Below are positions 42,142 through 59,812 of a stretch of 64,000 nt of DNA, one piece after another. The position numbers and the translations under genes were made by a program. The notes below the pieces were generated by a model that was given only the letters and a program-made list of their open reading frames with translations, made no database searches and was not told the origin of the DNA. The stretch's first letter is position 1. Each line of letters starts with the position of its first letter. The stretch is from Bacteroidales bacterium (lineage in GTDB: Bacteria; Bacteroidota; Bacteroidia; Bacteroidales; FEN-979): NCBI GenBank assembly GCA_025355465.1, contig JANXZO010000075.1, forward strand, positions 51,564-115,563, read 5' to 3'.

Positions 42142-42153
42142 ATATTAAGTATT

Positions 42154-44354: not shown

Positions 44355-44415
44355 GTCTTGTTCATTTCTTTGATCGCCCAAAGAAACTCGCTAGAAATGC
44401 GGCCTAAGGCATTTG
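44355..44415. repeat. 'Empty-site' version of the composite repeat: left arm with hairpin joined directly to the right flank
   Basis: gtcttgttcaTTTCTTTGatcgccCAAAGAAActcgctagaaatgcgg|cctaaggcatttg. The left arm is ~95% identical to 55489-55537. The right flank matches 52671-52683 and 50068-50080. The ~155-bp hairpin element seen at 55538-55691 is absent. Confidence 0.6.
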
Positions 44416-44420
44416 AAAAA

Positions 44421-44523
44421 GAAATAGCGAAATAGCGAGGTAGCGAAATAGCGAAAAATCGTAAATCGTAAGTCGGATGGCCTTCACATTTGTGCATTTG
44501 TGCATCCGTGCATTCGTGCATAG
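44421..44523. repeat. Tandem 8/7-bp repeat arrays (aaatagcg family, aaatcgt family, catttgtg family)
   Basis: aaatagcg aaatagcg aggtagcg aaatagcg aaaaatcg-t aaatcgt aagtcgg ... catttgtg catttgtg catccgtg cattcgtg. Confidence 0.9.
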
Positions 44524-44542
44524 GTACCCTTTCCTATCAATA

Positions 44543-44598
44543 TATACGATAACGGCGTATAAGTATATTGAATATTATACGTTTCATTCGTATATTTG
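44543..44598 (+). promoter_or_regulatory. Twin dyads TATACG-N7-CGTATA plus a TAnnTTTG -7 box upstream of the ATPase gene
   Basis: Dyad 1 at 44543-44561 (tatacg ataacgg cgtata). Dyad 2 at 44576-44594 (tatacg tttcatt cgtata), centres 33 bp apart. TATATTTG at 44591-44598 overlaps dyad 2, 13 nt before ATG 44612. Confidence 0.45.
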
Positions 44599-44611
44599 CT
44601 AAAAATATCTT

Positions 44612-45781
44612 ATGGAAACAGTTCTTTACCGCTATAATCCCTGGTGGACAGGGGTGGTAAGTGAACCGGCGGGAATCGGGAGGCCTTCGGTGGAGGAGCT
44701 CCTTTACGGTCAGCTGGGAAATGACCAGGTGATCTTTATCACCGGGCTGCGACGGATCGGGAAGACCACCCTGATGAAGATGACCATTCACAGGTTGATC
44801 CGGGATTCTGTTACCGACGGCAGACATATTCTTTATGTGAGTCTCGACGATTACCAGCTTCAGAAACAATCCATCATGGATATCGTGGAGGAGTTCAGGA
44901 AGATCAACAAACTGAAGTTTGCAGAGCCTGTCTACCTCTTCCTCGATGAGGTTACCTATAAAGATGATTATGAACTTCAGCTTAAGAACCTGGTGGATGC
45001 GCAAAAAGTCAAGATCATTGCCTCAGCCTCCAGCGCTTCATTGCTGAAGAGCAAGAAAGCATACCTTACCGGACGCCATTTTGATATTGAGGTGAATCCG
45101 CTTACCTTCTCCGAATACCTGGCTTTCAAAGGGATTAATATCCTACCCCAGGATGCCGGACTCACGGAAAATTACTTCGAAGATTTCCTTAAAACGGGCG
45201 GTATTCCGGCCCATGTGCTTACCGGCAATTCCGATTACCTGCGCGAACTGGTCGATGATATCATCTACAAGGATATTGCCGTTAACCAGCAGGTGAAGGA
45301 TGTGCGGGTGCTTAAGGAGTTTTTTCTGCTACTGATGGAAAGGGCAGGGAAACAGTTCAGTATTAACAAGATCGCCCATGTTCTTCAACTCTCACCCGAT
45401 ACGGCCCGTCGATATATCGACCTTTTTGCCGATACCTACCTTATCCACCTCATGAGCCGGCATGGCAAAACCAACGAAAGGATTCTCTCTCCGAAAAAGA
45501 TTTATGCCGCCGATACAGGGATCCGTTGCCTTTTTACTGGCTACCGCGACAAAGGAAGTCTGTTCGAAAATTACATCTACCTGAGAATCCGCCCCCTGGG
45601 ACCTGGATATATCTACGAGAATAAAACGGAGATCGATTTCTACCTTCCCGATAAAACACTCATCGAAGTGAAATACCACAACGAACCCCTCTCCCCGGCT
45701 CAGGAGAAATTGTTTAACAGCTACCCCGCGAAACAAAGGCTGATCATACGAAGTGAGGAAGAGATGCTAGATCTCGGATGA
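44612..45781 (+). CDS. AAA-type ATPase with DUF4143-like C-terminal domain
   Basis: P-loop GLRRIGKTT, Walker B YLFLDEVT, C-terminal nuclease-fold-like region (EIDFYLPDKTLIEVKY). 389 aa. Confidence 0.8.
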   Translation: METVLYRYNPWWTGVVSEPAGIGRPSVEELLYGQLGNDQVIFITGLRRIGKTTLMKMTIHRLIRDSVTDGRHILYVSLDDYQLQKQSIMDIVEEFRKINKLKFAEPVYLFLDEVTYKDDYELQLKNLVDAQKVKIIASASSASLLKSKKAYLTGRHFDIEVNPLTFSEYLAFKGINILPQDAGLTENYFEDFLKTGGIPAHVLTGNSDYLRELVDDIIYKDIAVNQQVKDVRVLKEFFLLLMERAGKQFSINKIAHVLQLSPDTARRYIDLFADTYLIHLMSRHGKTNERILSPKKIYAADTGIRCLFTGYRDKGSLFENYIYLRIRPLGPGYIYENKTEIDFYLPDKTLIEVKYHNEPLSPAQEKLFNSYPAKQRLIIRSEEEMLDLG

Positions 45782-45968
45782 CGGATCACGGATTACGGAC
45801 TTTTTTCATCTGCTGTCTGTCATCTGTCTCAAATCGTCAATCGTTAATCAATCTGACCTTGTGACTTTGTGACTTTGTGACTTTGTGACCTTGTGACCTT
45901 GTGACCCTGTGACCCTGTGCCGTGGTAAAAATAAATTATCAATTATCCATTGTCAATTATCAATTAAT
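45774..45968. repeat. Composite tandem-repeat tract (7-mers acggatN; tctg-rich; 7-mers aatcgtN; 8-mers gtgacNNt; 7-mers aattatc)
   Basis: tcggatg acggatc acggatt acggac (contains the ATPase stop codon at 45779-45781). Then ccttgtga ctttgtga x3 ccttgtga x2 ccctgtga x2 (45857-45921). Then aattatc aattatc cattgtc aattatc aattaat (45934-45968). Confidence 0.9.
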
Positions 45969-46039
45969 GCCTATTTTTGTATTATACTAAAAAGCATAAC
46001 GCTAAATGGTATAACGCTAAAAGGTATAATTTTAAATAT

Positions 46040-47155
46040 ATGATAAACAATCCATTCAGTTACGGAAAGACGGTTGACGGGCCCTATTTTTATGGCCGGG
46101 AGCGGGAGATGGAGGAGATACGGATCTCGATGCAGAATGCCATCAACATAATCCTGTACGCCCCGAGGCGGATCGGGAAGTCTTCGCTGGTGATCAAGGT
46201 GCTGAAGGAGCTCGAGGCGGCTGGTCACCCGGTGGTATACATCGACCTCTTCAAAGTTTCATCGCGCGAAAAGTTCATTGAGCTCTATGCGCGCGAGGTG
46301 GTACGGGGAATGAAGAGCTGGGAGAAGGGGGTTCAGTTTATCAAGGGGGTAATCCGGGGTGTGGAGCCGGTGATGGGTCTCGATCATGCGGGGATGCCTG
46401 AACTGCGCCTCAACATCGATCCGCTGCAGAGCGCCCGGGCCTTCGAAGATATCCTCAACATACCGGGCCGGTCGAAAGGGGAGCGGTGCTGGGTGGTGGT
46501 GTTCGACGAGTTCCAGGAGATCGAAAAACTGGGCGGTGCCGATTTTGAAAAGGAGCTGCGGGCCAGCCTGCAGCATCACAAGAATGCGGCTTACCTGTTT
46601 CTCGGCAGCCAGCGGCACATGCTGCTCAACATGTTTTCGCGCAAAGAGCGGGCCTTTTATAATTTCGGGAAACTCTACCACCTCGACAAGCCACCCGTGA
46701 CCGATTCGGTGGCGTTCGTCGCCCGGCGCTTTGCCGCAGGGGGATACGAAATTGATATACAGATGGCGCAACAGATGGTGGAGCAGACGCACAACATCCC
46801 CTACTACCTGCAATACCTGGGGGCGGAGATATGGGAGAGCGCCCGCCTATCGGGAAAAAAGCCCGTGGAGGTTTACGCCGAAGCCCTCGACCGGCTGCTG
46901 ATCAACCAGGGCGACTACTTCCAGGGAATCCGGAGCCAGCTCACCCCGTTCTATGCAAAACTCCTCACCTCCGTGGCCATCCACGGAGCCGGGAGCTATG
47001 AATCGGAGTTCCTGCAGAAATTCCGCCTCTTCCCTGTCTCCAGCATGCAAAAAGCATATGCCCGCATGATCGACCTCGATATCCTCGAAAAGCGGGAGAA
47101 CCGGTTCTGCATCACCGACCCGTTTTTTGAGATGTGGATGAAACGTCAGAGCTAA
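46040..47155 (+). CDS. ATPase of the archaeal-ATPase/DUF234-like family
   Basis: ATG at 46040 (MINNPFSYGKTVDGPYFYGREREMEEI). P-loop APRRIGKSS, Walker B VVVFDEFQEI, C-terminal winged-helix-like end (FCITDPFFEMWMKRQS). Confidence 0.75.
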   Translation: MINNPFSYGKTVDGPYFYGREREMEEIRISMQNAINIILYAPRRIGKSSLVIKVLKELEAAGHPVVYIDLFKVSSREKFIELYAREVVRGMKSWEKGVQFIKGVIRGVEPVMGLDHAGMPELRLNIDPLQSARAFEDILNIPGRSKGERCWVVVFDEFQEIEKLGGADFEKELRASLQHHKNAAYLFLGSQRHMLLNMFSRKERAFYNFGKLYHLDKPPVTDSVAFVARRFAAGGYEIDIQMAQQMVEQTHNIPYYLQYLGAEIWESARLSGKKPVEVYAEALDRLLINQGDYFQGIRSQLTPFYAKLLTSVAIHGAGSYESEFLQKFRLFPVSSMQKAYARMIDLDILEKRENRFCITDPFFEMWMKRQS

Positions 47156-47273
47156 TGTGGTAATGTGGTGATGTGGTAATGTGAGAATTTGAAGATTTGA
47201 GGATTTGAGAATTATTTCACCCTGTGACCCTGTGACCCTGTGACCCTGTGCCGATTTGTTCACTCGTTCACTT
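47154..47273. repeat. 120-bp tract of 15 consecutive 8-bp units in one register, spanning four unit families
   Basis: aatgtggt aatgtggt gatgtggt aatgtgag aatttgaa gatttgag gatttgag aattattt caccctgt gaccctgt gaccctgt gaccctgt gccgattt gttcactc gttcactt. The first unit overlaps the stop codon (47153-47155). Confidence 0.92.
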
Positions 47274-47291
47274 GGAAAGGGTAAAAGAAAA

Positions 47292-47323
47292 TTTGGAGAA
47301 TAGTAACTTTAAAGTTACCTTTG
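47292..47323 (+). promoter_or_regulatory. Candidate Bacteroidota-type promoter (TTTG ... TACCTTTG) with a perfect 16-bp palindrome, upstream of higBA
   Basis: TTTG at 47292-47295, a 20-nt spacer, TACCTTTG at 47316-47323, ATG at 47342. The palindrome GTAACTTTAAAGTTAC (47303-47318) overlaps the -7 box, as expected for a TA autoregulation operator. Confidence 0.5.
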
Positions 47324-47341
47324 CATCTAATTGAATGATTT

Positions 47342-47683
47342 ATGGAGAGAATCCGCGAAATAGTTGCATACAAAAACTATTTTGAAGACTTCTTAAAGGC
47401 ACAACCCACTAAGGTTCAGAATAAGATCTTCAAAATATTAGAAGCAATTGAAACTTTAGAGAGAATTCCAACAAACTACCTAAAGCTCATCATCGGAACA
47501 GGCGGTCTTTACGAAGCAAGAATTCAATTAGGATCAGACATTTGGCGTGTTTTTTGTTTTTTCGACAAAGGAAAGTTAGTAATCCTTTTAAACGGATTTC
47601 AGAAAAAGACACAGAAAACCCCAAAAAACGAAATTGAGAAAGCAATCACTTTAATGAAAGAGTATTATGAAAACAGAAGCTAA
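47342..47683 (+). CDS. higB: Type II toxin, RelE/ParE superfamily (HigB / Gp49-like)
   Basis: 113 aa. YEARIQLGSDIWRVFCFFDKGKLVILLNGFQKKTQKTPKNEIEKA is typical of Gp49/HigB-type toxins. Overlaps the downstream HTH gene by 17 nt. Confidence 0.78.
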   Translation: MERIREIVAYKNYFEDFLKAQPTKVQNKIFKILEAIETLERIPTNYLKLIIGTGGLYEARIQLGSDIWRVFCFFDKGKLVILLNGFQKKTQKTPKNEIEKAITLMKEYYENRS

Positions 47684-47978
47684 GAAAACAGACATATCTA
47701 CCTGGGCTGAAATTAAAGACAAGGTATATGGAAAAGAAGGAACTGAAAGACGTGATAATCTTGACAGAGAGGTTGAATCATTTAGAATAGGCCTTTTGTT
47801 AAAAAAAGCAAGGGAATCCCGTAATTTGACTCAGGAAGAATTAGGACATTTGGTTGACAAGAAAAGAACATACATATCCCGGGTCGAAAACAATGGCAGT
47901 AATATTACGCTTAGCACTCTTTTTGAAATTGTTGAAAAAGGACTGGGCGGAAAGGTGAATATTTCTATAGAAGTTTAA
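47667..47978 (+). CDS. higA: XRE-family HTH antitoxin (HigA-like)
   Basis: 103 aa with HTH LTQEELGHLVDKKRTYISRVENNGSNITLSTLFEIV. The toxin-first gene order is typical of higBA. Confidence 0.8.
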   Translation: MKTEAKKTDISTWAEIKDKVYGKEGTERRDNLDREVESFRIGLLLKKARESRNLTQEELGHLVDKKRTYISRVENNGSNITLSTLFEIVEKGLGGKVNISIEV

Positions 47979-48139
47979 TATTGAATGCAAGCAATGCAAT
48001 GAATGCATGAGCCTTCTTTTAGCATCTCCTTTTTTCTTTTTTTGCCCTCAGGCCGCGAGGCCATTTCTGTTCACTTGTTCACTCGTTTAAAACAAATTGT
48101 TTAACGCAAAATGTTTATTATCCTTGTTTAAATTAAGTT

Positions 48140-48844
48140 ATGAATCCTTTCATCATCAGGGGTTACAAGGGTAAGAAGTATTTCTGCGACCGGGAGAGTG
48201 AAACTGAGGCCATTGCAGGTGCCATCAAAAATGGCCGCGACATCACGCTGGTGTCGCTGCGCAAAATGGGGAAGACAGGCCTGCTCTTCCACCTTTTCGA
48301 AAAACTGCGTAAGGAGGGGGAGGTGGAGCCGGTCTACCTGGATATTTACCACACGGAGAACCTCAACGGATTGATCGATCAGATGGCCACGGCCCTCTTC
48401 CGGATAAAGAAGAGCTTTGGCGCGCGCATGCAGGAGTTCTTGCGGAACTTTCGCTATGTAAGGCCCTCCGTTACTGTGGATCCGCAAACCGGACTACCCT
48501 CCCTGTCGTTCCAGATAGCAGATGCCAGGGAGGCACGGGGTACGCTCGAGGACCTCTTTGAAATTCTGCAGGAGCGGGGGCGGATTAAGCCCGTGGTGAT
48601 CGCCATCGATGAGTTCCAGCAGATTGCAACCTATCCCGAGCAGCATGTCGAGGCCCTGCTGCGCGGACTGATCCAGTCGCTGAACAATACCCGGTTCATC
48701 TTCTCCGGAAGCAACAAGACACTCCTTACCCGGATGTTCGGCGATGCCGCCCGCCCGTTCTACCAAAGCACAGAGATGATCTGCCGCCGCGGAGAGGAGT
48801 ACTATGTGTACGATGTCTTCTTTTCGAGATGGATGGAGAAGTAG
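48140..48844 (+). pseudogene. Internally deleted paralog of the 46040-47155 ATPase
   Basis: P-loop LRKMGKTG and Walker B VVIAIDEFQQI are retained. After ..PFYQSTEMI the sequence jumps to the family's C-terminal end (YYVYDVFFSRWMEK). Total 234 aa versus 371 aa, so ~130 aa are missing in frame. Confidence 0.5.
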
Positions 48845-48855
48845 GTTTAAGGTAA

Positions 48856-48992
48856 TGTGGGATGTGGGATGTGGGATATGGGATCTGAGATGTGAGATTC
48901 GAGTTCCGAGATTCGAGCTCCGAGTTTCCGGTGACTCGTTCACTCGTTCACTCGTTCACTTTGTAAAATTAATTATCAATTATCAATTATCA
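48856..48992. repeat. Composite tandem-repeat tract: 11 x 7-mers (tgtggga to tccgagt), 4 x 8-mers (cactcgtt), 4 x 7-mers (attatca)
   Basis: tgtggga x3, tatggga, tctgaga, tgtgaga, ttcgagt, tccgaga, ttcgagc, tccgagt, ttccggt. Then gactcgtt cactcgtt cactcgtt cactttgt. Then aaaatta attatca x3. Confidence 0.9.
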
Positions 48993-49018
48993 ATAAGTTT
49001 GCTCCAAATCTCACACTT

Positions 49019-49078
49019 ATGTCTAAAGTTGCGTTGATCTCCGGGGTTACCGGACAGGATGGTAGTTACCTGGCTTAT
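49019..49078 (+). pseudogene. gmd: GDP-mannose 4,6-dehydratase 5' stub (first ~19 codons only)
   Basis: ATG 49019 encodes [20 protein letters not shown], near-identical to the canonical Gmd N-terminus [23 protein letters not shown]. Similarity then stops. TAAGTTTG (-7-like box) lies at 48990-48997. Confidence 0.65.
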
Positions 49079-49084
49079 CAGGTT

Positions 49085-50072
49085 GGTGGAAAGCAAGCCT
49101 CGCCTAAAGAAGTTATACCTTCAGCAGCATAATCCTGAATATACAAGTGTTTACCTGTCGTATTCGGGAAACGGGAATATTAAGCCTGTATCGCCAAGGA
49201 GAGAACGGAAGCGGGAGAGCCTGGTATTAAAGCCCGAAGCAATCGGAAGGTTCGAGGAGTTTCTCACAAAAGCTGCAACCACCGGTCCTGGTTTTCGATA
49301 TTACCCCGATGCACTGGATTATATATTGAAGCTGAGAGATTATTTGAGACGCATTGACCTGATTGCAACCAACTACCTGCCTTCGGTAAAAGGCAACAAG
49401 CTTGATACACTGACGAATGCAGCCGGCACGACACAAAGATTGAGGAGTTCATGAACATCATCAACGAAATCGTCAGTGAAGGGGATGAGAAGATCGTGAT
49501 CTTCAGCCAGTGGGGTCGGTCTTAACCTTCAGGCCGGATCGGTGATTATCAATCTCGATGTGCCCTGGAATCCGGCCGTACTGGAGCAGCGCATCGGCAG
49601 GGTTCACCGTCTTGGGCAAAAGCGCAACGTTAGTGTGATCAACATGGTCTCGGCCGGGACCATTGAACATCGTATGCTCGACGTCCTGAAATTAAAATCC
49701 TCAATGGCTGCGGGCATTCTCGACGGGGGAGAAGATGCCATTTTCATGGGTGAAAGCCGGTTTAAAAAATTCATGTCCACGGTGGGTGAACTGATGAACA
49801 GGGAGGCTGGAGCGGTGAACAGAGCGCCGGAGGTGGTAACTCGTGATCAGGAAGTCCTCACTCCTGAACCGGAGAAATTACTGCATACGCCTGGAGTCCC
49901 GGATGGTTTGGCGGCAGCCGGGGAGCTGGTTGCAAAAGGAATGGACTTTTTATCGACGCTTGCGGCCGCATTGTCGCATCCCGATTCGGTAAAGCAGCTG
50001 ACCGAATCGCTCGTTGCGGAGGATCCCGCCAGCGGGAAGAGCTATTTAAGAATCCCCGTCGTAAAACCCTAA
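49085..50072 (+). pseudogene. SNF2-family helicase C-terminal remnants (frameshifted, internally deleted)
   Basis: Pieces in different frames: ..KIEEFMNIINEIVSEGDEKIVIFSQW (about 49440-49515), then LNLQAGSVIINLDVPWNPAVLEQRIGRVHRLGQKRNVSVINMVSAGTIEHRM (helicase motifs V-VI). The region between IFSQW and GLNLQ is missing. The final codons and stop come from the repeat flank ccccgtcgtaaaaccctaa. Confidence 0.65.
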
Positions 50073-50086
50073 GGCATTTAAAAAGG

Positions 50087-50150
50087 AAATAGCGAAATAG
50101 CGAGATAGCGAGATAGCGAAATTATTTGTGCATCTGTGCATTCGTGCATT
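50087..50150. repeat. 8-bp tandem array (aaatagcg to tgtgcatt families), near-duplicate of 44421-44523
   Basis: aaatagcg aaatagcg agatagcg agatagcg aaattatt tgtgcatc tgtgcatt cgtgcatt. Preceded by the same cctaaggcattt anchor as at 44403. Confidence 0.9.
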
Positions 50151-50221
50151 GATTTTAAAGGCATTCTTGCATTGGTCGCCTGTGACTTTGTACGTTCGTA
50201 GAAATCGTTTACCTTCGCTCG

Positions 50222-50629
50222 ATGGAAAAGCTGGAGAAATTCGACAGGCTGTCGATTGCGATTCTTACTGAGGAGATCGACAAGGCCTTGGAGGAGATCA
50301 GAATTAAGTATGGTCTTGAGGAGTTGGTAGTTGATTTGGTTAAGTCGAATAACATTACGATGACTGCAAAATTAACCGGAAGGGTTTCCGGTGTTCATGC
50401 GAAGAATTTTGAGCACAACATGGCATTGCTGTTTGCTGATTACAACGGACTGCCTGCTGATCTGCTGAACCAGGAGTTTATCAGCAACGGCAAGGGGTTT
50501 ACTGTTATCAGGATTGAACCGCGAAATCCCAGATATCCAATTCTGGCGAGGGGGCTTCTGGATAATCTGGTATATAAATTTTCAGTAATCCAGGTCAAAG
50601 AGGCGTTGGAGAGGAAGAAAAGGGTTTAA
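50222..50629 (+). CDS. Hypothetical protein
   Basis: 135-aa ORF with no recognisable motif. Coding status uncertain. Confidence 0.35.
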   Translation: MEKLEKFDRLSIAILTEEIDKALEEIRIKYGLEELVVDLVKSNNITMTAKLTGRVSGVHAKNFEHNMALLFADYNGLPADLLNQEFISNGKGFTVIRIEPRNPRYPILARGLLDNLVYKFSVIQVKEALERKKRV

Positions 50630-50730
50630 ATGGATGTTTGCTGTAGCCCAATGAACCTGGAAAATCCTGATACCAGATCTTTATACTTTGCACACTTCTA
50701 TTGACGGTAAGTAAGAAAATCTGAAAATCC

Positions 50731-52419
50731 ATGAAAAAGCTATATCTCCTTATTATCATTTTATTTATTGCCGGATCCGTCTACTCCCAGATCGTCTACG
50801 AGGACATCAACAACACTGCTATTTATGAATTCCTGGATGAGTTAGCTAATAACCGGATTATCGAGTTGAATTCGGTCGTGAAACCCTACTCCAGAGCCTA
50901 TATTGCCGCGAAGTTGAGGGAGGCGGAGTTAATAGTTAAGAGTGAAGAGTTAAGAGTTAAGAGTGAGGAGTTAAGAGTTAGGGTGAGCAGGAGGTTGGTG
51001 GAGGAGTTGGAGTTTTATCTGCAGGATTATCAGTTGGAGGGGAAAACAATTCCGGTTACGTATGAGCATAAGGTGGGGTTTATTGCGAAGAATAATCCGA
51101 ATATGAAGGTGGCGTTGAATCCGTTGGCTTTTAATTACAAGGATTCGTTGTTTACCTTTTCGATACGGCCGATATTGGGGGTGCAGTGGATGACGAATGA
51201 GAACGGCGCTGAGTATCACCGCTGGTGGGGTGGGAGTATGTTTGGATACATTGGCAAGAACTTTGGGTTTTATGCCAATATCAGGGACAATGAGGAGAGT
51301 ACGCCTCTGGCTAAGCCGGTTTATTTTACCGAGGCGCAGGGACAGGTTTATAAAAACATGGAAAAGGGTGCTGTGAACTACAGCGAGATGCGGGGGGGGA
51401 TTGTTGCTTCAGTAAGCTGGGGGTCGATCGGGATCATGAACGACCGGGTGGTGTGGGGCGACAACTACCATGGGGCAAATATTCTCTCCGGCAAGGCGCC
51501 GGCCTTTCCCTATCTGCAACTGCACCTGAACCCGGTGAAGTGGTTTGACTTTAACTACATGCATGGATGGCTTAACTCTAATATCATCGACAGCAGCCGT
51601 TCCTATTATATCGATGGGGTTTACCGGCAAACGCTCCGAAATAAATACATTGCTGCGAATATGTTCACCTTTATCCCCTGGCGGGGATTGAATCTCTCGT
51701 TCGGGAATTCGATCATCTACAGTGATATTAATATTAATCCGCTCTATTTTATCCCATTCCTGTTTTACAATGCCGTAGATGCAAGCCGGACAAATTATGC
51801 AGATTATGCAGGTTCCAACTCGCAACTATTCTTCAATATCAGCAGCCGGCAGATCAGGTACCTGCATCTGTTTGTTTCGCTCTATATTGATGAGTGGAAG
51901 ACTTCACGGGTTACTGATCCAAAAAAGAACAACTTTACCAGCCTCAAGGCAGGGTTCAGGTTAAGTGATTTTCCGGTAAAAAACCTGTCGCTTACTGCTG
52001 AGTACACCCGCACCATGCCCATGACCTACGACCATTACATCGCCACCACCACCTTTGCCTCCAACGACTACGTGCTGGGGAATTACATGCGGGAGAATTC
52101 GCAGGAGATCTATGTTGCCCTCGCATGGAGGCCAATCCGGGGACTTTTGATCAACACCTCCTATACACTGGCACAACATGGAGCTGATGTGAAATATCGT
52201 AACAATGCCGGCTACGCCGTGGATGGTGTGCCCTTCCTGAAAAACAAAACCTGGCAGAACAGCGCTTTCGAGCTCTCAGCCAGGTATGAGTTTGTGAGTA
52301 ACGGGTATTTCTTTGTTCAGTATCTAAACGGGGAACAACAAGGGGATGTTAAATACCTGCCGGTATTTATGCATGGCAGGACGAGTACGTTACTCTGTGG
52401 AGTGAACGTAGGGATTTAA
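50731..52419 (+). CDS. Outer-membrane protein, capsule-assembly Wzi-like
   Basis: Signal peptide present. The N-terminal helical motif (IYEFLDELANNRIIELNSVVKPYSRAYIAAKL) resembles what I recall of Wzi-family proteins. A long beta-barrel-like remainder follows. Contains an in-frame heptamer-repeat insertion (see repeat 50929-50984). Confidence 0.55.
   Translation: MKKLYLLIIILFIAGSVYSQIVYEDINNTAIYEFLDELANNRIIELNSVVKPYSRAYIAAKLREAELIVKSEELRVKSEELRVRVSRRLVEELEFYLQDYQLEGKTIPVTYEHKVGFIAKNNPNMKVALNPLAFNYKDSLFTFSIRPILGVQWMTNENGAEYHRWWGGSMFGYIGKNFGFYANIRDNEESTPLAKPVYFTEAQGQVYKNMEKGAVNYSEMRGGIVASVSWGSIGIMNDRVVWGDNYHGANILSGKAPAFPYLQLHLNPVKWFDFNYMHGWLNSNIIDSSRSYYIDGVYRQTLRNKYIAANMFTFIPWRGLNLSFGNSIIYSDININPLYFIPFLFYNAVDASRTNYADYAGSNSQLFFNISSRQIRYLHLFVSLYIDEWKTSRVTDPKKNNFTSLKAGFRLSDFPVKNLSLTAEYTRTMPMTYDHYIATTTFASNDYVLGNYMRENSQEIYVALAWRPIRGLLINTSYTLAQHGADVKYRNNAGYAVDGVPFLKNKTWQNSAFELSARYEFVSNGYFFVQYLNGEQQGDVKYLPVFMHGRTSTLLCGVNVGI
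50929..50984 (+). repeat. Heptamer array inside the Wzi-like CDS, translated as (VKSEELR)x2
   Basis: ttaatag ttaagag tgaagag ttaagag ttaagag tgaggag ttaagag ttagggt. Three heptamers make 7 codons, giving ..LIVKSEELRVKSEELRVRV... The units are reverse complements of the ctcttaa/ctcctca units at 52893-52969. Confidence 0.9.
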
Positions 52420-52517
52420 TCAAACTCTTAATTCTTAATTCTTTTGCTCTCAGGCCAGGCGGGATTTGTACTTTTCTTTTGCTTGTCCAAAAGAAAACTA
52501 CGAAAAGAAAAAGACAG

Positions 52518-52670
52518 CCTGGGCTTTGTAACGACCCACATTCAGCTCAATTCCGAAGCCAGGCAAGCCGTTCGGCTGTAATCGTGTTTCTTCTAATCAG
52601 TTCTTTTCGAGCCTCACTTCGGGCCTGGCTTCTTTCGGAATTTTCGCTGTGTGGGTCCCCGTTATAAAGC
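52518..52670. mobile_element. MITE-like ~153-bp hairpin element, copy A
   Basis: The ends cctGGGCTTTGTAACGAcccac ... gtgggtcCCCGTTATAAAGCC are inverted repeats. Internal arms aattccgaagccaggc / gcctggcttctttcggaatt also pair. About 70-75% identical to copy B. The 62-aa ORF across it looks spurious. Confidence 0.6.
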
Positions 52671-52688
52671 CCTAAGGCACTTGAAAAC

Positions 52689-52728
52689 AATGCACGAATG
52701 TACAAATGCACGTATATGTGGTGTGACC
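52689..52728. repeat. 8-bp tandem array (aatgcacg family, the reverse complement of cgtgcatt)
   Basis: aatgcacg aatgtaca aatgcacg tatatgtg gtgtgacc, directly after the cctaaggcacttg anchor. Confidence 0.8.
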
Positions 52729-52861
52729 GTCATCAAGACTTACGAAGTAAGTTGCAGATGAAGAGTAACGCCGGGTTTTAACCCGGTGACAGGTGCGGCG
52801 CCAGCCGCCCTGGGTGGGAGGGTGGGGCTTGTGCTTCTCAATTCACAAGTACAAATCTAAA

Positions 52862-52969
52862 ATGGCAAAATGCAAAATGGCAAAATCGTAAACTCCTCAC
52901 TCTTAACTCTTAACTTTTAACTCCTCACTCTTAACTGTTAATTCCTAATTCTTAATTCCTAATTCCTAA
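52862..52969. repeat. Tandem arrays: aaaatggc family (8/7-mers) then 11 x 7-mers (ctcctca/ctcttaa to ttcctaa)
   Basis: aaaatggc aaaatgc aaaatggc aaaatcgt ... ctcctca ctcttaa ctcttaa cttttaa ctcctca ctcttaa ctgttaa ttcctaa ttcttaa ttcctaa ttcctaa (52893-52969). The array ends 7 nt before the stop codon of the minus-strand gene. Confidence 0.9.
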
Positions 52970-52976
52970 TTGACTT

Positions 52977-54101
52977 TTACCCCGCTCTCTTCTTCATCGA
53001 CTTAATGACCGTCCAGGGGAGGGTGTGGCTCTTCTTTTGGTTGAAATAGATGGGGATATAGGTGAGGATGAGTCCTGATCCTACCAGGATGGTTGTGCCC
53101 AGGTATAGGTTCAGGTGTTGCATCTCAAAGGAGAGGATGATATAGCAGATGCTTACCAGGAAAAGGATGGCTGTGACCTGTTTGTGGCTGAAGCCGAGAC
53201 TGAGGAGTTGATGATGGATATGGGTTTTGTCGGGGTAAAAGGGGGATTTTCCCTGAAGGATCCGGGTGAGCATCACGCGGCAGGTGTCGAAGATGGGGAT
53301 GATGAGGATACCGAAGGAGACCACCGGGGAGGCTTCGATGTGCCAGGGCAGATTGGCTGAGAGGTTTAGCCCGTTGAAGCGGATCACCATCACCGACATC
53401 ATGAAGCCGAGAAAGAGGGAGCCGGTGTCGCCCATGAAGATCTTGTTCTTCTTCGACCAGAGGTTGAAGCGCAGGAAGGCGAGGAGGGCGCCGATGTTGG
53501 CGCCGCAGATCAGCGCATAACCGGGTTGGTTGTTGATGTAAAACCAGGCGCCGAAGGTGGCAAAGGCGGTGAGGGCCATGGTGCCTGCCAGGCCGTCGAC
53601 CCCATCGATGAGGTTGAAAGCGTTGGTGATGCCCAGGATGAGGAAGAGGGTGAAGAAGATGCTGAGGGGGTAGCTGATCCCGTTTACGCCGAAATAGCCG
53701 TGAAAGCTGGTGAAGCGGATGTCGGCCAGCAGGATGAGGATGAGGGCGGCGATGATCTCGGCGATGAACTTCTTGTAGAAGGAGATGCCCAGGATATCGT
53801 CTTTGATGCCGATGAAGAAGATGATCACGCTGCCGGCAATGAGATACTGGTACTCGGGGAATTCGAAGATCCTCAACAGGAGCGAAGTCGCTACAATGAC
53901 GCTGAGAAAGATGGAGATGCCGGCCAGCCGGGGGGTGGGGAGGGCGTGGGCGGCGCGGAGGTTGGGCTGGTCGTATATCTTACTGTTGTGGGCGATCCTT
54001 ACCAGTATGGGTATGGAGTAGTAACAGAGCAGCAGCGCTACGGCCAGTGCCAGCAGGATCAGTTGATCGTCGGTAAAGATTTTGTGTAAAAGGTCGCCCA
54101 T
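52977..54101 (-). CDS. MraY/WecA-family polyprenyl-phosphate N-acetylhexosamine-1-phosphate transferase (paralog A)
   Basis: Multi-TM protein with family motifs IKDDILG, NAFNLIDGVDGLA, MGDTGSLFLGF, IPIFDT.RV, PDKTHIHH. Confidence 0.88.
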   Translation of the reverse strand: MGDLLHKIFTDDQLILLALAVALLLCYYSIPILVRIAHNSKIYDQPNLRAAHALPTPRLAGISIFLSVIVATSLLLRIFEFPEYQYLIAGSVIIFFIGIKDDILGISFYKKFIAEIIAALILILLADIRFTSFHGYFGVNGISYPLSIFFTLFLILGITNAFNLIDGVDGLAGTMALTAFATFGAWFYINNQPGYALICGANIGALLAFLRFNLWSKKNKIFMGDTGSLFLGFMMSVMVIRFNGLNLSANLPWHIEASPVVSFGILIIPIFDTCRVMLTRILQGKSPFYPDKTHIHHQLLSLGFSHKQVTAILFLVSICYIILSFEMQHLNLYLGTTILVGSGLILTYIPIYFNQKKSHTLPWTVIKSMKKRAG

Positions 54102-54332
54102 CGTTAAAATCAGAGAACAAATAAAGGAAAAAGGTTGCTTTGACCGGCTGCAAAGCTAAGAAATTATTTCCAGATACTGTTTCGATGCTAACATCATGAT
54201 AGGTTATAAATAGGTACAAAAATAAAATAATTCACTATTTTTACCTTTTCCTTGCGTTTTTGTTATAGTAATATTATATTTGCCACCAATAATAATAATT
54301 GTCCCTGAACATTACTTGAACAGCTGCCTTTG

Positions 54333-55448
54333 ATGGATCTGAACCTGCTCCTAAAAATCATTCTCTCACTGGGTGTAGCCTTTGCGATAACGGCCATGCT
54401 TGTGCCTGTGGTGGTGAGTATTGTGAAGGAGAAGGGGGTGGTTGCCCACGAGAATGGCCGCACCTCTCACACCGGCACGATCCCCACCATGGGTGGGATT
54501 GCCATCTTTGCCGGCTTCCTGATCTCGGTTCTGGTATTCTCGGGTTCCGGGTTCCGCGACGACTTCCGCTATGTGATTGCCGGGGCGGTATTTATGCTGA
54601 TGGTGGGAATGAAGGACGATATCCAGGGAATTACCCCATGGATGAAGTTTGCAGGACAGATTATTGCAGCCTTGATCATCATTATACCGGGAGATATCCG
54701 GTTTACAAGCCTGCAGGGGTTCCTGGGGATTGAGGAGATCAGTTATTTCTGGAGTGTGGTGATCTCTTTGGTTACCATTGTCGGGTTGACCAACTGTTTT
54801 AACCTGATCGATGGCATTGATGGACTTGCCTCCGGAATAGGCACCCTGGTATCAGTTACCTTAGGGATTTGGTTTGGATTGGCAGGTCAATTTGGGTTGA
54901 TGTTTATTTGCCTGGCCCTTGTTGGATCGCTGATTGCTTTTTCAATCTACAACATCTGGGGGAAGGAGAACAAAATATTTATGGGGGATACCGGTTCGCT
55001 TGTGCTGGGCTTTATCCTCGCAGCCCTGGTTATCGAATTCAATGAATTAAACGTGGGGGTGCAGACTTCGGTGGATCTCATCTCGGCTCCCGCCATCAGC
55101 GTAGGGATCCTGATCGTGCCGGTTTTCGACACGCTGCGGGTCTTTATGCTGAGGATGTACCGGCTGAAACATCCCTTCAGCCCCGACAAAACCCATGCAC
55201 ACCACAACCTCATCTCCCTCGGGGCTTCTCACCCGCGGGCAACACTATCCCTTATTTTCCTGAACTTCCTGTTCATCGGTATCTCCTTCCTCCTCAACGG
55301 ACTGGGAAACACCTTCGTGCTCCTGATCGTGATGCTGCTTGCGCTGGTGGCCTTCTACCTGCCGGTATTTGTATTGCGGTTTAAGAACAGCGAGGGGAAC
55401 TCTTTTCGCAACTGGGTTGCGAAGGTTTCAATGAATCTTTTTGTTTAA
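54333..55448 (+). CDS. MraY/WecA-family transferase (paralog B)
   Basis: ATG at 54333 (the listed first M is a TTG). Motifs MKDDIQG, NCFNLIDGIDGLA, MGDTGSLVLGF, VPVFDTLRV, PDKTHAHH. Divergent from paralog A across a 231-bp spacer. Confidence 0.88.
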   Translation: MDLNLLLKIILSLGVAFAITAMLVPVVVSIVKEKGVVAHENGRTSHTGTIPTMGGIAIFAGFLISVLVFSGSGFRDDFRYVIAGAVFMLMVGMKDDIQGITPWMKFAGQIIAALIIIIPGDIRFTSLQGFLGIEEISYFWSVVISLVTIVGLTNCFNLIDGIDGLASGIGTLVSVTLGIWFGLAGQFGLMFICLALVGSLIAFSIYNIWGKENKIFMGDTGSLVLGFILAALVIEFNELNVGVQTSVDLISAPAISVGILIVPVFDTLRVFMLRMYRLKHPFSPDKTHAHHNLISLGASHPRATLSLIFLNFLFIGISFLLNGLGNTFVLLIVMLLALVAFYLPVFVLRFKNSEGNSFRNWVAKVSMNLFV

Positions 55449-55537
55449 TTGATCCCTTTTCACTAGCCCTCAAGCCGGGCGGGCCGTATCTTGTTCATTT
55501 CTTTGATCGCCCAAAGAAACGAGCGCTAGAAATGCGG

Positions 55538-55691
55538 ACTGGGTTTTTCGACGACCCACCATCGACTCGATTCCTAAGCCAGTCTAGCCGTTCGGCTATA
55601 ATCATATGGTTTCTTATCAACCTTAACCCAGCCTCACTTCTCCGCCTGGCTTTTGCGGAATCTTCGCCGGGTGGGTACCCCGTCGTAAAAC
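55538..55691. mobile_element. MITE-like ~154-bp hairpin element, copy B
   Basis: The ends actGGGTTTTTCGACGAcccac ... gtgggtaCCCCGTCGTAAAAC are inverted repeats. Internal arms gattcctaagccag / cctggcttttgcggaatc also pair. Flanked on the left by the same hairpin-containing arm found at 44355-44402. Confidence 0.6.
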
Positions 55692-55804
55692 CCTAACCCG
55701 ACTTGCATCCCCAGCTTCGGAATTTAGCCTGTGCCGGGTGGTTCAGTTTTTCGATCCACCTTTTCGGGTAACACAGATTTTTTAACAAACGGGTAGTTTT
55801 TGTA

Positions 55805-56687
55805 TCAACCTTTTTCCCATTGATGAAATGGTTGTGCAGTGATGGTTTTATGATCGATGGTGAAGGTATCCGACTGATCATGCGTTATAAGGCATGCGTT
55901 TTGAACCCCGAAATAATTCATGGCCTCCAATATTCCGTCTATTTCCCTGTCCATATTGTTCTGGTCTAATTGCCAGCATACCTGATAAAGGCCCTTCAAT
56001 TTTCCATTTTGAAATGCGACGAAATCACATTCTTTTTTATCCGAGAAGTAGAAAATCTCAGGTGTTTGCCGTCGCAGATTCAGATAGACCATATTCTCGA
56101 GGAGCCTGCCTTTATCCTCACTAAAAGAAACCGAATTAACATCAATGAAACCGTTATCAATACAGTAAACTTTTTTAGCATTTACAACCTGTATCTTATG
56201 AGAATAGCTGAATTTAGGAACAAAAAAGAAAAAGCAGGCATCGACAAAATAGGAGAGATAGTCCATCATACAGGAGGAAGAGCCAATCTGAAATATTTTT
56301 CTCAGACTGTTACCAGTAATGGGTTTTCCGGTATTTGACACAAGCCATACTGCAAGTTGTTGCAAAACATGGTTGTTTTTTAAATTGTACCGTATTACAA
56401 TATCACGAATGACAATATCATTGAAAGCCTGCATCAGTACCTCAGGCAATCCTGTTTTCAAATATTCAGGAAAGCCTCCCGTTTTCATGTATTTCTCTGA
56501 TGAACTGGCATCCCGGCCCTGGTTTGTAAAAGCAAGATATTCGGTATATGAGAAAGGGAATAATTCTCAATGCATGTGATGTCAGGTCGGCGAAACCTTC
56601 GACAGATCGTGGTAACCCCGAATCCATTTGGGTTAAGCGTTCTTTCTGGGAACCAATTACCTGCTCAATGAATAATTTCGATAACAC
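55805..56687 (-). pseudogene. DUF4143-type ATPase with its P-loop domain deleted
   Basis: The N-terminal ~35 aa (MLSKLFIEQVIGSQKERL...) join, in another frame, to ELFPFSYTEYLAF..KYMKTGGFPEYL and an intact C-terminal region. Compare VNPLTFSEYLAF..FLKTGGIPAHVL in the 44612 paralog. No Walker A or B motif remains. Confidence 0.65.
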
Positions 56688-56757
56688 AACTGCAAAGTTT
56701 TCGTTCGTAAAGTTAACTATTATTCGCTCACAGGAAAAACTTTTATTTATGAAAAAT

Positions 56758-56829
56758 TGATGAGGTGATGAGGTGATGAGGTGATAGTGTGATGAAGTGA
56801 GGGAGTGATGCGGTGATGGAGTAATGCGG
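56758..56829. repeat. 9 x 8-bp tandem array (tgatgagg family)
   Basis: tgatgagg x3, tgatagtg, tgatgaag, tgagggag, tgatgcgg, tgatggag, taatgcgg. All units are in one register. Confidence 0.9.
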
Positions 56830-56852
56830 TCAGTATGCTTTTACAGTAGCGG

Positions 56853-57290
56853 TTATAACATGCCGTGTGTTCTCAGTATTTCGGCAAGATCGGGGTGTTT
56901 CTTTGAGTATTCCCGAAGCAATGTCAAAAGAGTGCGGCTGTTTTCGTCGGCCTTCGCTGCTTGTTCCAAAGCTGGTTTCATAGCGGTACGGCGATCCCAG
57001 ATCATGTACCCCAGCATAAAGAGGAACAGGGTGATTAAAATGCCAAATCCCCAGAAAAAAAGTGTCTTAATGTCATCCAACTGTCTTTGCTGACTTTCAA
57101 ACTTGAATTCCATTTTGGCTTCGAGCGCATTTATTTTGGCTTCGAGTGCACCTATTTTGGCTTCGGTAAGAATGGCACGGTCACGGTCGGCCAAGGTATA
57201 TGGCACTGCCAATTGCTGCTCCTGCGCTGATACCGTGAGGTTAAGTATTGTTAGAAAAAGCAGACTGATATAAACAAGCGCTTTCATCAT
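56853..57290 (-). CDS. Hypothetical membrane protein with a coiled-coil ectodomain
   Basis: Signal peptide, heptad-like EAKIGALEAKINALEAKM, one TM helix (FFWGFGILITLFLFMLGYMIW). 145 aa. Confidence 0.45.
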   Translation of the reverse strand: MMKALVYISLLFLTILNLTVSAQEQQLAVPYTLADRDRAILTEAKIGALEAKINALEAKMEFKFESQQRQLDDIKTLFFWGFGILITLFLFMLGYMIWDRRTAMKPALEQAAKADENSRTLLTLLREYSKKHPDLAEILRTHGML

Positions 57291-57309
57291 ACTTGAATTT
57301 GAAGCGAAG

Positions 57310-57935
57310 TTACAAAATTAATGTAACGTATCCATTCGACCACGAGCTTCTTTTTTGATAACAAGGTGATGGGGTGATCCAGAATACGCGTAAGGTGTCG
57401 AATACCGGGATGGCCAGGATTCCGATAGCCACGGCAGGTGCCGCTCTCAGGGTCATGACTGTTTTGCCCGGGATGGCCGATTCACAAAACTTTATCGTAA
57501 AAAAAGCCAGGATAAATCCAAGGACCAATGCACCGGTGTCGCAGTGGCAATGATCACGAGTTCCAGCTGTCCGGTAAACCAAAACCATAATCCAAAAGTA
57601 AATGTTGCGATTCCGGTAATACCGGCAGCCAGTCCGTCAATCCCGTCGATCAGGTTGATTTCATGGAATCCCAGAAAACCGTGGATATCGGTGATCCGTA
57701 AGTTTCCGAAAAAAATAAGCAGATCAAAAGCAATCAGTTCACCAATAAATTTTTGGGTGGCCGTGAGAATAAGCAAATCATCTTTTACTCCCATAATGAA
57801 TATAATGATCACCGCTACCATGAAAAATTTCAATTCAGGCAGATATGATCCATGCAGGAAAAACAGTGAACTCAATCCCATGGCGGTGAAAATGGCAATA
57901 CCTCCAAGAGTGGGTATGGCTCCGTCATGTGAATC
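57310..57935 (-). pseudogene. MraY/WecA-family remnant (A'), truncated at both ends and frameshifted
   Basis: Begins at ..RDSHDGAIPTLGGIAIF, so ~45 N-terminal codons are missing. Contains VKDDLL and NLIDGIDGLA with an internal deletion. A frameshift near 57590 precedes DTGALVLGF..IPVFDTLRVF, and the sequence decays after that. Confidence 0.7.
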
Positions 57936-59049
57936 CCGGCCGAACCTGCTCCTTAAAATCATTCTCTCACTGGGTGTAGCCTTTGCGATAACGGCCATGC
58001 TTGTACCGGTGGTGGTGAGTATTGTAAAGGAAAAAGGGGTGGTTGCACATGAAAATGGCCGCACCTCTCACACCGGCAGTATCCCCACCATGGGGGGGGA
58101 TCGCCATATTTGCCGGCTTCCTGATCTCGGCCTGGTCTTTTCGGGCTCCGGATTCCGCGACGACTTCCGCTATGTGATTGCCGGTGCAGTATTTATGCTA
58201 ATGGTGGGGATGAAGGATGACATTCAGGGAATTACCCCCTGGATGAAGCTTGCAGGTCAGATTATTGCAGCCCTGATAATCATTGTGCCGGGAGATATCC
58301 GTTTTACCAGCCTGCAGGGGTTTTTGGGGATTGAAGAGATCAGTTATTTCTGGAGCGTGGTAATCTCATTGGTTACCATTGTCGGGTTGACGAACTGCTT
58401 TAACCTGATTGATGGCATTGATGGACTTGCCTCAGGAATAGGCACCCTGGTCTCAATTACCTTAGGGATCTGGTTTGGATTGGCGGGTCAATATGGACTG
58501 ATGTTTATTTGCCTTGCCCTTGTTGGATCCCTGATTGCCTTTTCAATCTACAACATCTGGGGCAAGGAGAACAAGATATTTATGGGCGATACCGGTTCGC
58601 TTGTGCTTGGTTTTATCCTCGCAGCCCTGGTTATCGAATTCAATGAGTTGAATGTGGGGGTGCAGACTTCAGTTGATCTCATTTCAACCCCGGCTATAAG
58701 TATCGGGATTATGATCGTACCCGTATTTGATACACTCCGGGTATTTATTCTCAGAATGTGGCGAAGAAAACACCCTTTTTCTCCAGACAAGACCCATACG
58801 CATCACAATCTGATTAACTTGGGGGCATCTCATCACAAGGCCACGTTATCGCTGATGTTTCTTAATGGTATTTTCATTGCTATTTCATTTGCATTAAACT
58901 CTCTGGGTGCTACGATTCTCTTAACCCTTATCATGGCTTTAGCATTACTGGCATTCTATCTCCCGATTTTTGCCTTTCGGTTTAAGGATAAAGATTCTAC
59001 CCGACTTCGCACGAGACTTGCCAGGGTTACTTCGTTGTTTATTGCTTGA
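57916..59049 (+). pseudogene. MraY/WecA-family paralog B' (~90% nt identity to 54333-55448), with a replaced 5' end and a compensated double frameshift
   Basis: Homology to B starts at gaacctgctcc (57942); the native start codon and promoter are gone. The only in-frame ATG (57916) lies inside the antisense of A'. A G8 run at 58092-58099 (+1) and a -1 about 45 nt later convert TM-helix residues IAIFAGFLISVL into DRHICRLPDLGL. The listed 501-aa ORF (57544-59049) is a read-through artefact. Confidence 0.55.
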
Positions 59050-59056
59050 TTTAATT

Positions 59057-59088
59057 GTGACAAAGTCACAGGGTCACAGGGTCACAAG
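59057..59088. repeat. 8-bp tandem array (gtcacagg, the reverse complement of the cctgtgac family)
   Basis: gtgacaaa gtcacagg gtcacagg gtcacaag, starting 8 nt after the stop of B'. Confidence 0.85.
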
Positions 59089-59126
59089 GGAAAAAGATGT
59101 TATTTCCCCGTATTCAACCTAAACCG

Positions 59127-59768: not shown

Positions 59769-59812
59769 TTTGAGTTATGCAGAGTAATACGTGAGTTCTT
59801 ATTAAATTTTAA

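Follow-up and report, generated by a model that had tools for sequence, protein, structure and literature searches.

Genes in one zone of the Bacteroidales contig JANXZO010000075.1 are separated by tandem arrays of 7- and 8-nucleotide (nt) units, and the locus raises the question of what these arrays are, how they arise and whether they serve a purpose. The zone comprises positions 44355-59090 of the window, that is, of the whole 64,000-nt stretch that was analysed. An earlier description of this DNA from its letters alone (the sequence-only reading) had noted units that change by single-base steps and unit families that recur kilobases apart. We find that the arrays are long simple-sequence repeats (LSSRs) of the short tandemly repeated repetitive (STRR) type, with units of 7 and 8 nt. 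They are probably for the most part tolerated products of slippage, which also serve as recombination junctions.

Extent and reality of the arrays

The sequence was searched with Tandem Repeats Finder (TRF) and with a second, stricter detector of our own for period-7/8 arrays, for which first-order Markov shuffles of the zone served as null model. About 30 period-7/8 arrays are present in the zone, and TRF array scores range from 30 to 97 in the window. TRF recovers every array listed by the sequence-only reading, with coordinates within a few bases. The stricter detector reports 13 arrays in 44355-59090, one in 1-44354 and none in 59091-64000, whereas a Markov-shuffled zone yields about 0.05, so that the arrays exceed chance as tandem runs of units of at most 11 nt must to be counted as LSSRs. 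They are also numerous, dispersed, mostly intergenic and drawn from few shared unit families, the hallmarks of STRRs. About half of the arrays that TRF finds in the window are heptameric and the remainder octameric, with units of 9 nt occurring additionally in relatives.

Counted in bases, 936 nt of the zone lie in arrays of period 7/8 or multiples thereof, compared with 113 nt in the preceding 44 kb, and such arrays occupy 781 of the 3149 intergenic bases of the zone (25%). The contrast with the upstream region is not due to a lack of intergenic space, since the gaps of at least 40 nt add up to comparable lengths (3.2 kb in the zone, 3.3 kb upstream). By a stringent count, 9 of 14 such gaps hold arrays in the zone and 0 of 15 upstream; this count dropped the array at 56758-56830, which marks a tenth array-bearing gap of the zone. 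The flanking housekeeping region, which the sequence-only reading had described as lacking such arrays, has one stringent array in 1-44354 and none in its gaps.

Two Logan assemblies (L001 and L002, whose contigs recur in 4 and 2 runs) agree with positions 45860-52968 and 47518-52968 of the window at 100% and without gaps. Ten internal arrays are covered by this match of two independent assemblies from different runs, and both contigs terminate within long arrays. Arrays of the same period-7/8 type are found in relatives in ENA, JGI, Logan and NCBI assemblies alike. The sequence-only reading had named assembly artefacts beforehand as one outcome that would undo it; the independent assemblies reproduce the arrays at 100%, and the arrays are real.

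Unit turnover, copied spacers and junctions

Comparison of closely related sequences offers a view of how the arrays change. The ATPase homologue P0122 occurs as an identical protein in five JGI samples (L161-L165; samples 3300077323-3300077326 and 3300077572), with an AATGAAC array 3' of the gene. This array has 6 units in L161, 5 in L162 and 5, one of them variant, in L165, between otherwise identical flanks. Similarly, AATTATC is repeated 4.7 times in the window and 11.9 times in the orthologous spacer of L166, so that the strain comparison proposed earlier does reveal copy-number polymorphism. Whole sets of units also differ: 3' of the ATPase gene 46040-47155, the window carries GACCCTGT x3 where L166 carries CACCCTGT x3, and TAATGTGG where L166 carries GATGTGCC. 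The window and L003/L004 are 96.8% identical over a toxin-antitoxin cassette, and the adjoining ACCCTGTG array, in register between window and L003/L004, is homogenised in the window and graded via TGTTACTC, TGTCACTC and TTTTACCC in L003. The sole multi-base indel shown in the cassette alignments, 8 nt relative to L003/L004, falls in another short repeat, of AATGCA type, 3' of the antitoxin gene (47984-48007). An array inside the Wzi-family gene has equal length in three orthologues, with its units shifted jointly (GAGTTAA, GAATTAG, TAATTGA).

Variant units are also clustered. Across 49 arrays of other genomes, 79 adjacent non-consensus variant units are observed, compared with 67.6 +- 5.0 after permutation, and 30 of 2000 permutations reach 79. 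This result comes from a conditional test on non-seed variants, two earlier permutation tests having been discarded as biased by array detection. Taken together, the copy-number, concerted-change and clustering patterns bear the signature of slippage or unequal exchange with local homogenisation. They show that arrays gain and lose whole units and homogenise within the array, in line with the slippage-type process that the sequence-only reading had proposed. Replication slippage or unequal exchange would add and remove units, and a point change in one unit would either be lost or be copied to its neighbours, producing the stepwise 'morphing' along an array. Loops of 7-8 nt exceed the size removable by MutS-type mismatch repair.

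The recurrence of the same families at distant sites leads to a second component. A post-gene element of about 250 nt lies directly 3' of genes and consists of a short hairpin, an inverted repeat GTTCATTTCTTTGA..CAAAGAAAC, a long imperfect hairpin and the terminus ccctaaggca. It folds better than shuffles (z = -3.85), has no Rfam match and recurs after unrelated genes in both orientations, with further copies in L128 (2870-3125), L156, L160 and, reversed, L161-L164. At 44421, 50086 and 52689 an array begins right behind the element terminus. A single spacer of L128 contains the element, an AAATCGT array, a second conserved stretch, a TCACTYGT array, ACCCTGT units and a promoter. In the window, the spacers 3' of two ATPase genes that are only 29% identical share the order TAATGTGG-like, GAGATTY-like, ACCCTGTG, ACTCGTTC, and self-BLAST aligns 44403-44456 with 50068-50121 at 93% identity. 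Because flanks and family order are shared across sites, family recurrence stems largely from copied composite spacers and not from independent births. The arrays are thus shown to be parts of a lineage-specific mosaic of intergenic modules, composed of hairpin element, ordered arrays and promoter. Such modules are copied round the genome, and the same families thereby come to lie kilobases apart and in sister species.

The post-gene element may represent an undescribed family of Bacteroidota intergenic elements. Its inverted repeat (GTTCATTTCTTTGA-N4-5-CAAAGAAAC gaaccaaagaaa) is also seen in unrelated metagenome contigs, once right 3' of a tRNA gene. A metagenome scan for it returned only 12 contigs, mostly of other lineages, and was of little use for the arrays.

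Like arrays are present in sister species (L127, L128, L161-L170), with a partly shared vocabulary of AAATCGT, TCACTCGT, AATTAGG, TGTGACTT and ACTCTGTG; the more distant relative L168 has arrays of other units, and a Prolixibacteraceae metagenome-assembled genome (MAG) also shares part of the window's vocabulary. The same kind of array with overlapping vocabulary at other loci of sister species speaks against the 'locally active' process that had been proposed. The genes flanking arrays in array-rich Bacteroidales MAGs, sampled at random (n = 30), are mostly housekeeping (accA, glmS, rlmH, L25, clpB, ribH and others), and arrays in such genomes are therefore not confined to islands, contrary to the earlier expectation that they mark accessory DNA as a rule.

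A scan for (YYTGTGAC)3 in one genome per species returned at least 120 loci, often several per genome. Among the matches listed, they fall in Bacteroidota, Omnitrophota, Planctomycetota, Acidobacteriota, Ignavibacteriales, Verrucomicrobiota, Actinomycetota and others, and hold many more arrays of period 7-9, whereas the window's other units occur there only in Bacteroidales and Prolixibacteraceae MAGs. No special status of YYTGTGAC across phyla is claimed here, as scrambled octamers are equally frequent in the one collection compared, a viral one (5, 4 and 4 matches vs 6 for YYTGTGAC). In other phyla, an array of a unit is often followed by an array of its own reverse complement (L094, 4618-4688; L051, 2601-2715; L011, 692-806), and these pairs could potentially form long hairpins or cruciforms. 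In the Bacteroidetes MAG LacPavin_0419_WC70L_MAG_48_58 (L012, L024, L059, L069, L105, L120), GTGACYYT arrays of 3-16 units sit within a dispersed element with conserved flanks, gccactaaggcacc...cctggtgaacc before the array and ttggtggc...tttcggagtggactca behind it; its 'ctaaggca' motif is similar to the terminus of the window's post-gene element.

Arrays are also tolerated in coding sequence. A stop triplet within a 7- or 8-nt unit closes all three frames within three units. Among the genome loci listed, all 33 YYTGTGAC arrays inside long open reading frames (ORFs) lie antisense, because in the sense orientation the TGA of the unit would close every frame. Wzi homologues, which are outer-membrane proteins (P0001-P0120; 542-666 aa), contain two hypervariable linkers of 26-66 and 0-80 aa, which are made of translated 7-/8-mer arrays (e.g. 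NEELGVR x4, FQGFNVSE, NLPTYQLT, NYELRIT). These observations partly show that arrays arise or insert irrespective of location and persist where tolerated; selection would allow them in spacers between independently transcribed genes, and inside genes only where the coding strand of the unit is open and the number of copies preserves the frame, as in the Wzi linker. At gene ends, array units hold the stop codons at 42139-42141, 45779-45781 and 47153-47155. A fourth stop codon attributed to an array by the sequence-only reading, 50070-50072, lies outside arrays, in the terminus (cctaaggca) of the dispersed element.

Arrays coincide with the points at which related sequences part. To either side of the toxin-antitoxin cassette, the window and L003/L004 cease to be homologous within arrays. 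L162 and L163 part precisely at a GAATTAG array, and the divergence of L163 from L161, L162 and L165 sets in at arrays, 13 nt past the stop codon. All four strain-comparison breakpoints thus fall in array sequence, compared with a quarter of the zone's intergenic DNA being arrays, and the idea that arrays sit at rearrangement junctions gains support. The identical P0122 gene stands in five different neighbourhoods in L161-L165 (ParE toxin, IS3 transposase, DDE_Tnp_1, other ATPases), and contigs with its relatives are mostly 1.2-2.5 kb long, as expected of a repeat-bounded gene. This suggests that the P0122-type ATPase gene is a mobile cassette bounded by repeats. Arrays would act as short-homology junctions for cassette exchange, insertion and truncation, a role that agrees with their accumulation in the rearranged accessory zone.

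Our overall account is that STRR-type slippage arrays are carried in copied spacer modules, filtered by selection and used as junctions, and we hold it at a probability of roughly 60%. Several observations weigh against it. The 15 array-free gaps elsewhere in the same window mean that tolerance alone does not explain the local density. Family order is kept across species at non-orthologous sites (GTGACYYT beside TGTTCACT in the window, L003, L127, L128 and L048), which pure neutral slippage does not predict, and the modules would therefore be mobile or selected. By our own tally, AAATCGT runs in sense with the upstream gene in 7 of 8 cases from the lineage, and AATTATC stands directly upstream of promoters in 4 of 4 cases, 2 of them orthologous. 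The variant-adjacency test is powerless within the lineage itself (3 arrays), and the arrays are identical between the sequencing runs (4 and 2) of one strain, with no short-term hypermutability. Finally, chimeric joins could in principle underlie breakpoints that lie at repeats of metagenome assemblies, a possibility made unlikely by an array length of about 40 nt and an assembly k of up to 141.

Array families and genes along the zone

The arrays, given here without strand, follow TRF coordinates. The first precedes the zone: AAATCGT x2.6 (42126-42143) overlaps the yceD stop codon just upstream of rpmF. Behind fabH lies an internally deleted copy of the post-gene element (44356-44420, plus strand; inverted repeat gttcatttctttga..caaagaaac, terminus ggcctaaggcatttgaaaaa; 94% identical to 55489-55537), followed by GAAATAGC x4.5, AAATCGT x2.9 and CATTYGTG x4.4, concatenated at 44421-44521. 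GATCACG/GATGACG x4.3 (45770-45799) gives the stop codon of an AAA_14/DUF4143 ATPase gene. In the next spacer, an octamer array of 8.2 units, also reported by the stricter detector, passes from GTGACTTT through GTGACCTT to GTGACCCT (45854-45919), and AATTATC x4.7 (45934-45966) abuts the promoter (TAttTTTG) of the ATPase gene 46040-47155. Between this promoter and the start of the gene is a 15-nt direct repeat, CTAAAAGGTATAACG x2.9 (45987-46029), which is kept in the homologues L161-L167, unlike the arrays around it, and is possibly a gene-specific operator.

The spacer mosaic 3' of this gene (47153-47275) comprises TAATGTGG x3.9, with the ATPase stop in its first unit, AATTTGAG x4.5, ACCCTGTG x4 and TGTTCACT x2.5. 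TGTTCACT x2.5 returns at 48068-48087, beginning exactly at the end of L003 homology. A second mosaic (48855-48994) with ATGTGGG x6.3, GAGATTC/GAGCTCC, ACTCGTTC x3.4 and AATTATC x3.4 has the family order of the first. At 50068-50150 the element terminus cctaaggcatttaaaaa, containing the stop of a helicase fragment, is followed by GAAATAGC x4.6 and ATTTGTGC x3.4 (TRF and self-BLAST). The array inside the Wzi-family gene (50731-52419) is GAGTTAA x7.9, in frame on the plus strand with a 21-nt period (50926-50980), and encodes ELIVKSE ELRVKSE ELRVRVS. Immediately 3' of the Wzi stop codon, TCTTAAT x2.6 (52426-52443) leads into a full copy of the post-gene element (52440-52690, plus strand), with short hairpin, inverted repeat, long imperfect hairpin and terminus ccctaaggcacttgaaaa.

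Behind it stands AATGCACA x2.9 (52689-52711), the reverse complement of the TGTGCATT family; of the pair aaatagcg + tgtgcatt that the sequence-only reading saw inverted here, this half is present and the other is not. At 52859-52971, AAAATGGC x3.6 and one AAATCGT precede about 11 AACTCTT/TAATTCC heptamers, which are the reverse complement of the family within the Wzi gene. A second full copy of the element, without attached array, follows the GT4 gene 54330-55448 (55449-55700, plus strand). The last arrays are an octamer array of about 9 TGATGAGG/TGATGGAG units (56758-56830) and, between convergent genes, GTCACAGG x2.8 (59065-59086; TRF and self-BLAST), the reverse complement of CCTGTGAC. Self-BLAST also pairs 45888-45922 with 47219-47253 and both with their reverse complement at 59065-59089, as well as 50925-50979 with the reverse complement of 52891-52945; the earlier observation that families recur kilobases apart and in both orientations therefore stands. 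A 21-nt repeat (x2.6, 90% matches; 57112-57165) lies inside the minus-strand ORF 56853-57290.

Upstream of the zone is yceD-rpmF-plsX-fabH. The zone itself encodes two STAND/AAA ATPases, a Gp49/HTH toxin-antitoxin pair, a truncated ATPase, helicase and gmd fragments, a Y4mA_C gene, the Wzi-family gene, three WecA-like GT4 paralogues and a DUF4143 fragment. The stretch 48140-50072 is a run of gene remnants, namely an ATPase that has lost about 140 aa internally, an N-terminal gmd fragment (~49026-49060) that retains a promoter motif, and C-terminal fragments of an SNF2-type helicase, the last of which ends in the terminus of the dispersed element. The WecA-like paralogues lie at 52977-54101 (minus), 54330-55448 (plus) and 57544-59049 (plus), with 89% identity between 54341-55158 and 57942-58759. 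The Wzi and ATPase proteins have their homologues in Bacteroidota/Bacteroidales MAGs, and by the names of these homologues the host is an uncultured member of Bacteroidota, probably Bacteroidales or Prolixibacteraceae-like. In L128, whose Wzi is 82% identical, a polysaccharide locus begins 83 nt 3' of the Wzi gene, and 52420-59126 of the window is therefore an insertion relative to L128. The polysaccharide biosynthesis locus 3' of the zone (59100-64000) has no arrays and 37% G+C, compared with about 50% elsewhere.

The first 41 kb hold multihaem cytochromes, a two-component system, cytochrome c assembly, GlmS and similar chromosomal genes. Within them, 3626-18000 groups multihaem cytochromes (Paired_CXXCH, MtrC/MtrF-like), NHL beta-propellers, a sigma-54 two-component pair and ResB/CcsA, which could be an extracellular electron-transfer module. 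Neither Rfam scans (at gathering and at E-value thresholds) nor tRNA scans gave anything relevant in the zone. Exact-protein look-ups of FabH and L32 had no match, and contigs with PlsX stop just after fabH.

Alternative explanations and known systems

The explanation that survives best beside slippage is that the arrays are parts of non-autonomous mobile elements, similar to mosaics of bacterial interspersed mosaic elements (BIMEs) and repetitive extragenic palindromes (REPs) or to a MITE (miniature inverted-repeat transposable element) with a minisatellite inside it. They would be moved by a transposase or recombinase whose gene lies elsewhere, with slippage only tuning their length afterwards. 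The shared unique flanks of 44403-44456/50068-50121, and of L161 2148-2417/L162 1524-1796 at 90%, fit this explanation, as do the hairpin element after unrelated genes, the identical family order behind two dissimilar ATPase genes and the conserved flanks on both sides of the arrays in the LacPavin MAG. There is also a precedent, a minisatellite inside a Porphyromonas gingivalis MITE (PMC4596501). However, copies vary in the arrays they contain, and conserved flanks are lacking for many arrays. By eye, neither terminal inverted repeats nor target-site duplications are obvious in the flanks, no systematic search having been made. No transposase, RAYT-like (Y1) gene, integrase or recombinase is found among 20 zone ORFs or the 20 largest of 32 ORFs in 1-41 kb. 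We therefore consider an origin as mobile elements possible, although doubtful.

Somewhat less probable is that the arrays are functional DNA sites, either bound by nucleoid-associated or regulatory proteins or acting as UP-element- or insulator-like spacers that set downstream expression. Unit vocabulary and order are conserved across species, AATTATC arrays lie immediately upstream of Bacteroidota-type -33/-7 promoter motifs, and arrays stand between an upstream stop codon and a downstream promoter; in Nostoc, deletion of a heptamer repeat alters promoter responses (bioRxiv 10.1101/2022.06.06.494920). Nevertheless, orthologous spacers of close strains differ in copy number, unit sequence and even period, and the same units are tolerated within coding sequence. 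GTGACYYT also lacks a strong orientation bias, with the upstream gene co-directional in 49 and opposed in 29 intergenic cases among the matches listed; opposed cases rise to about 40 if some ten antisense cases within coding sequence are re-read as ORFs over-extended at the 5' end. A sigma-70 promoter scan of the zone showed no enrichment, the sigma-70 model being unsuited to Bacteroidota. Most arrays appear to have no dedicated function. Side effects are plausible, such as stops in all three frames, the spacing of transcription units and A/T-rich tracts upstream of promoters.

Of similarly low likelihood is a more far-reaching interpretation, in which arrays and hairpin element form a BIME-like 'punctuation' of an uncultured Bacteroidales clade and preferred sites of cassette exchange, and in which the same repeat-generating process writes the hypervariable Wzi linkers. 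If this were true, each independently transcribed cassette would have a 3' hairpin module with ordered, expandable 7/8-mer arrays, and the repeats, rather than being filler, would constitute an organised engine that varies the accessory genome and the surface.

It is very improbable that the arrays act as proposed for the TAACTGA repeats of Beggiatoaceae, a precedent that itself exists as a hypothesis (PMC4679880). Most arrays do lie downstream of a co-directional gene, and the sense bias of AAATCGT points the same way. Yet the folding of eight array blocks does not surpass that of dinucleotide shuffles (z from -2.0 to +0.55), the number of terminator-like sites shows no excess (19 vs 18.7 expected), Rfam gives no match, families are present in both orientations, and the arrays lie 60-90 nt upstream of start codons, unlike the start-adjacent arrays of Beggiatoaceae. 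The same folding and site counts dispose of intrinsic terminators (a G+C-rich hairpin with U-tract), a role that the sequence-only reading had considered. That the arrays are assembly or sequencing artefacts, to which short-read contigs breaking off in the longest arrays might point, can practically be dismissed given the agreement of two independent assemblies over ten internal arrays and the same kind of array in relatives from four sources.

Three further identities were rejected. A phase-variable contingency locus does not fit, as the array in the Wzi gene keeps frame and has the same length in three orthologues, and intergenic arrays lie upstream of promoter motifs and not between promoter hexamers. 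For an integron cassette array, no integrase is present among the scanned window ORFs, the genes have their own Bacteroidota-type promoter motifs, and the element terminus is cctaagg rather than the attC core GTTRRRY. CRISPR repeats measure 23-50 nt with unique spacers, whereas the units here are 7-8 nt and contiguous.

Although STRRs were described more than 30 years ago, tandem arrays of 5-11-nt units, common in some bacterial lineages, still lack an explanation. Natural experiments are available in the present lineage, with 6- and 5-unit neighbours of the same gene, concerted orthologous arrays, junction arrays and translated linkers, and it is usable for estimating rates of slippage and homogenisation and for asking whether repeats of this type drive the shuffling of the accessory genome. 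As arrays interrupt short-read assemblies and give rise to spurious or extended ORFs, they are also relevant to MAG annotation.

The STRRs of heterocystous cyanobacteria are the classic case, with STRR1-3 units CCCCAGT, TTGGTCA and CAACAGT. The arrays described here resemble those of Calothrix, Nostoc and Anabaena in their few unit families, many dispersed intergenic arrays, head-to-tail families, both orientations and unresolved function. They differ in having 7- and 8-nt units (9 in relatives), other unit sequences, none of them STRR1-3, and a Bacteroidota host, and in their association with a hairpin 'post-gene' element and with cassette junctions. Among the long simple-sequence repeats of prokaryotes, heptamer arrays form the commonest class, with polymerase slippage as proposed origin (Mrazek 2007, as summarised in PMC4679880 and PMC4692102). 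With the LSSRs of that survey (units 5-11 nt), our arrays share a length beyond chance, the prominence of heptamers, intergenic location, non-pathogen hosts with sizeable genomes and the proposed origin; as summarised there, the survey includes neither this lineage nor a shared vocabulary or mosaic syntax.

The sequence-only reading knew of no equivalent in Bacteroidota, which is superseded by a report of heptamer arrays, those of TAACTGA among them, in five Bacteroidetes genomes, at times with several families per spacer (MacGregor 2015, PMC4679880). Those arrays, described together with Beggiatoaceae and cyanobacteria, are likewise intergenic and missing from the same spacer in close relatives. 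The window, in contrast, has no TAACTGA array in its TRF results, its arrays are not at start codons and octamers are equally common. Heptamer arrays are also recorded in Xanthomonas and Nostoc (PMC4692102) and in Geobacter, and a regulatory effect has been suggested in Nostoc (bioRxiv 10.1101/2022.06.06.494920). The GGGAATC/GGGGAYT repeats of Xanthomonas and Nostoc are similar in being intergenic heptamers with conserved positions and variable length and sequence, but are G-rich and quadruplex-forming, whereas the window's units are A/T-rich or mixed and unstructured. Enterobacterial BIMEs/REPs and the P. gingivalis MITE (PMC4596501) share a few-family mosaic after genes, a 3' hairpin element and dispersed copies. 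The mosaic here consists mostly of tandem 7/8-mers instead of palindromic units; its hairpin element folds and recurs after genes, and the arrays themselves are not palindromic. Hence, the array phenomenon itself is already known from cyanobacteria and a few other groups and is not of a new kind. What the present locus adds is that octamers are used equally, that spacers have a recurring syntax linked with a hairpin element, that arrays lie at the junctions of cassettes and that protein linkers are encoded by arrays.

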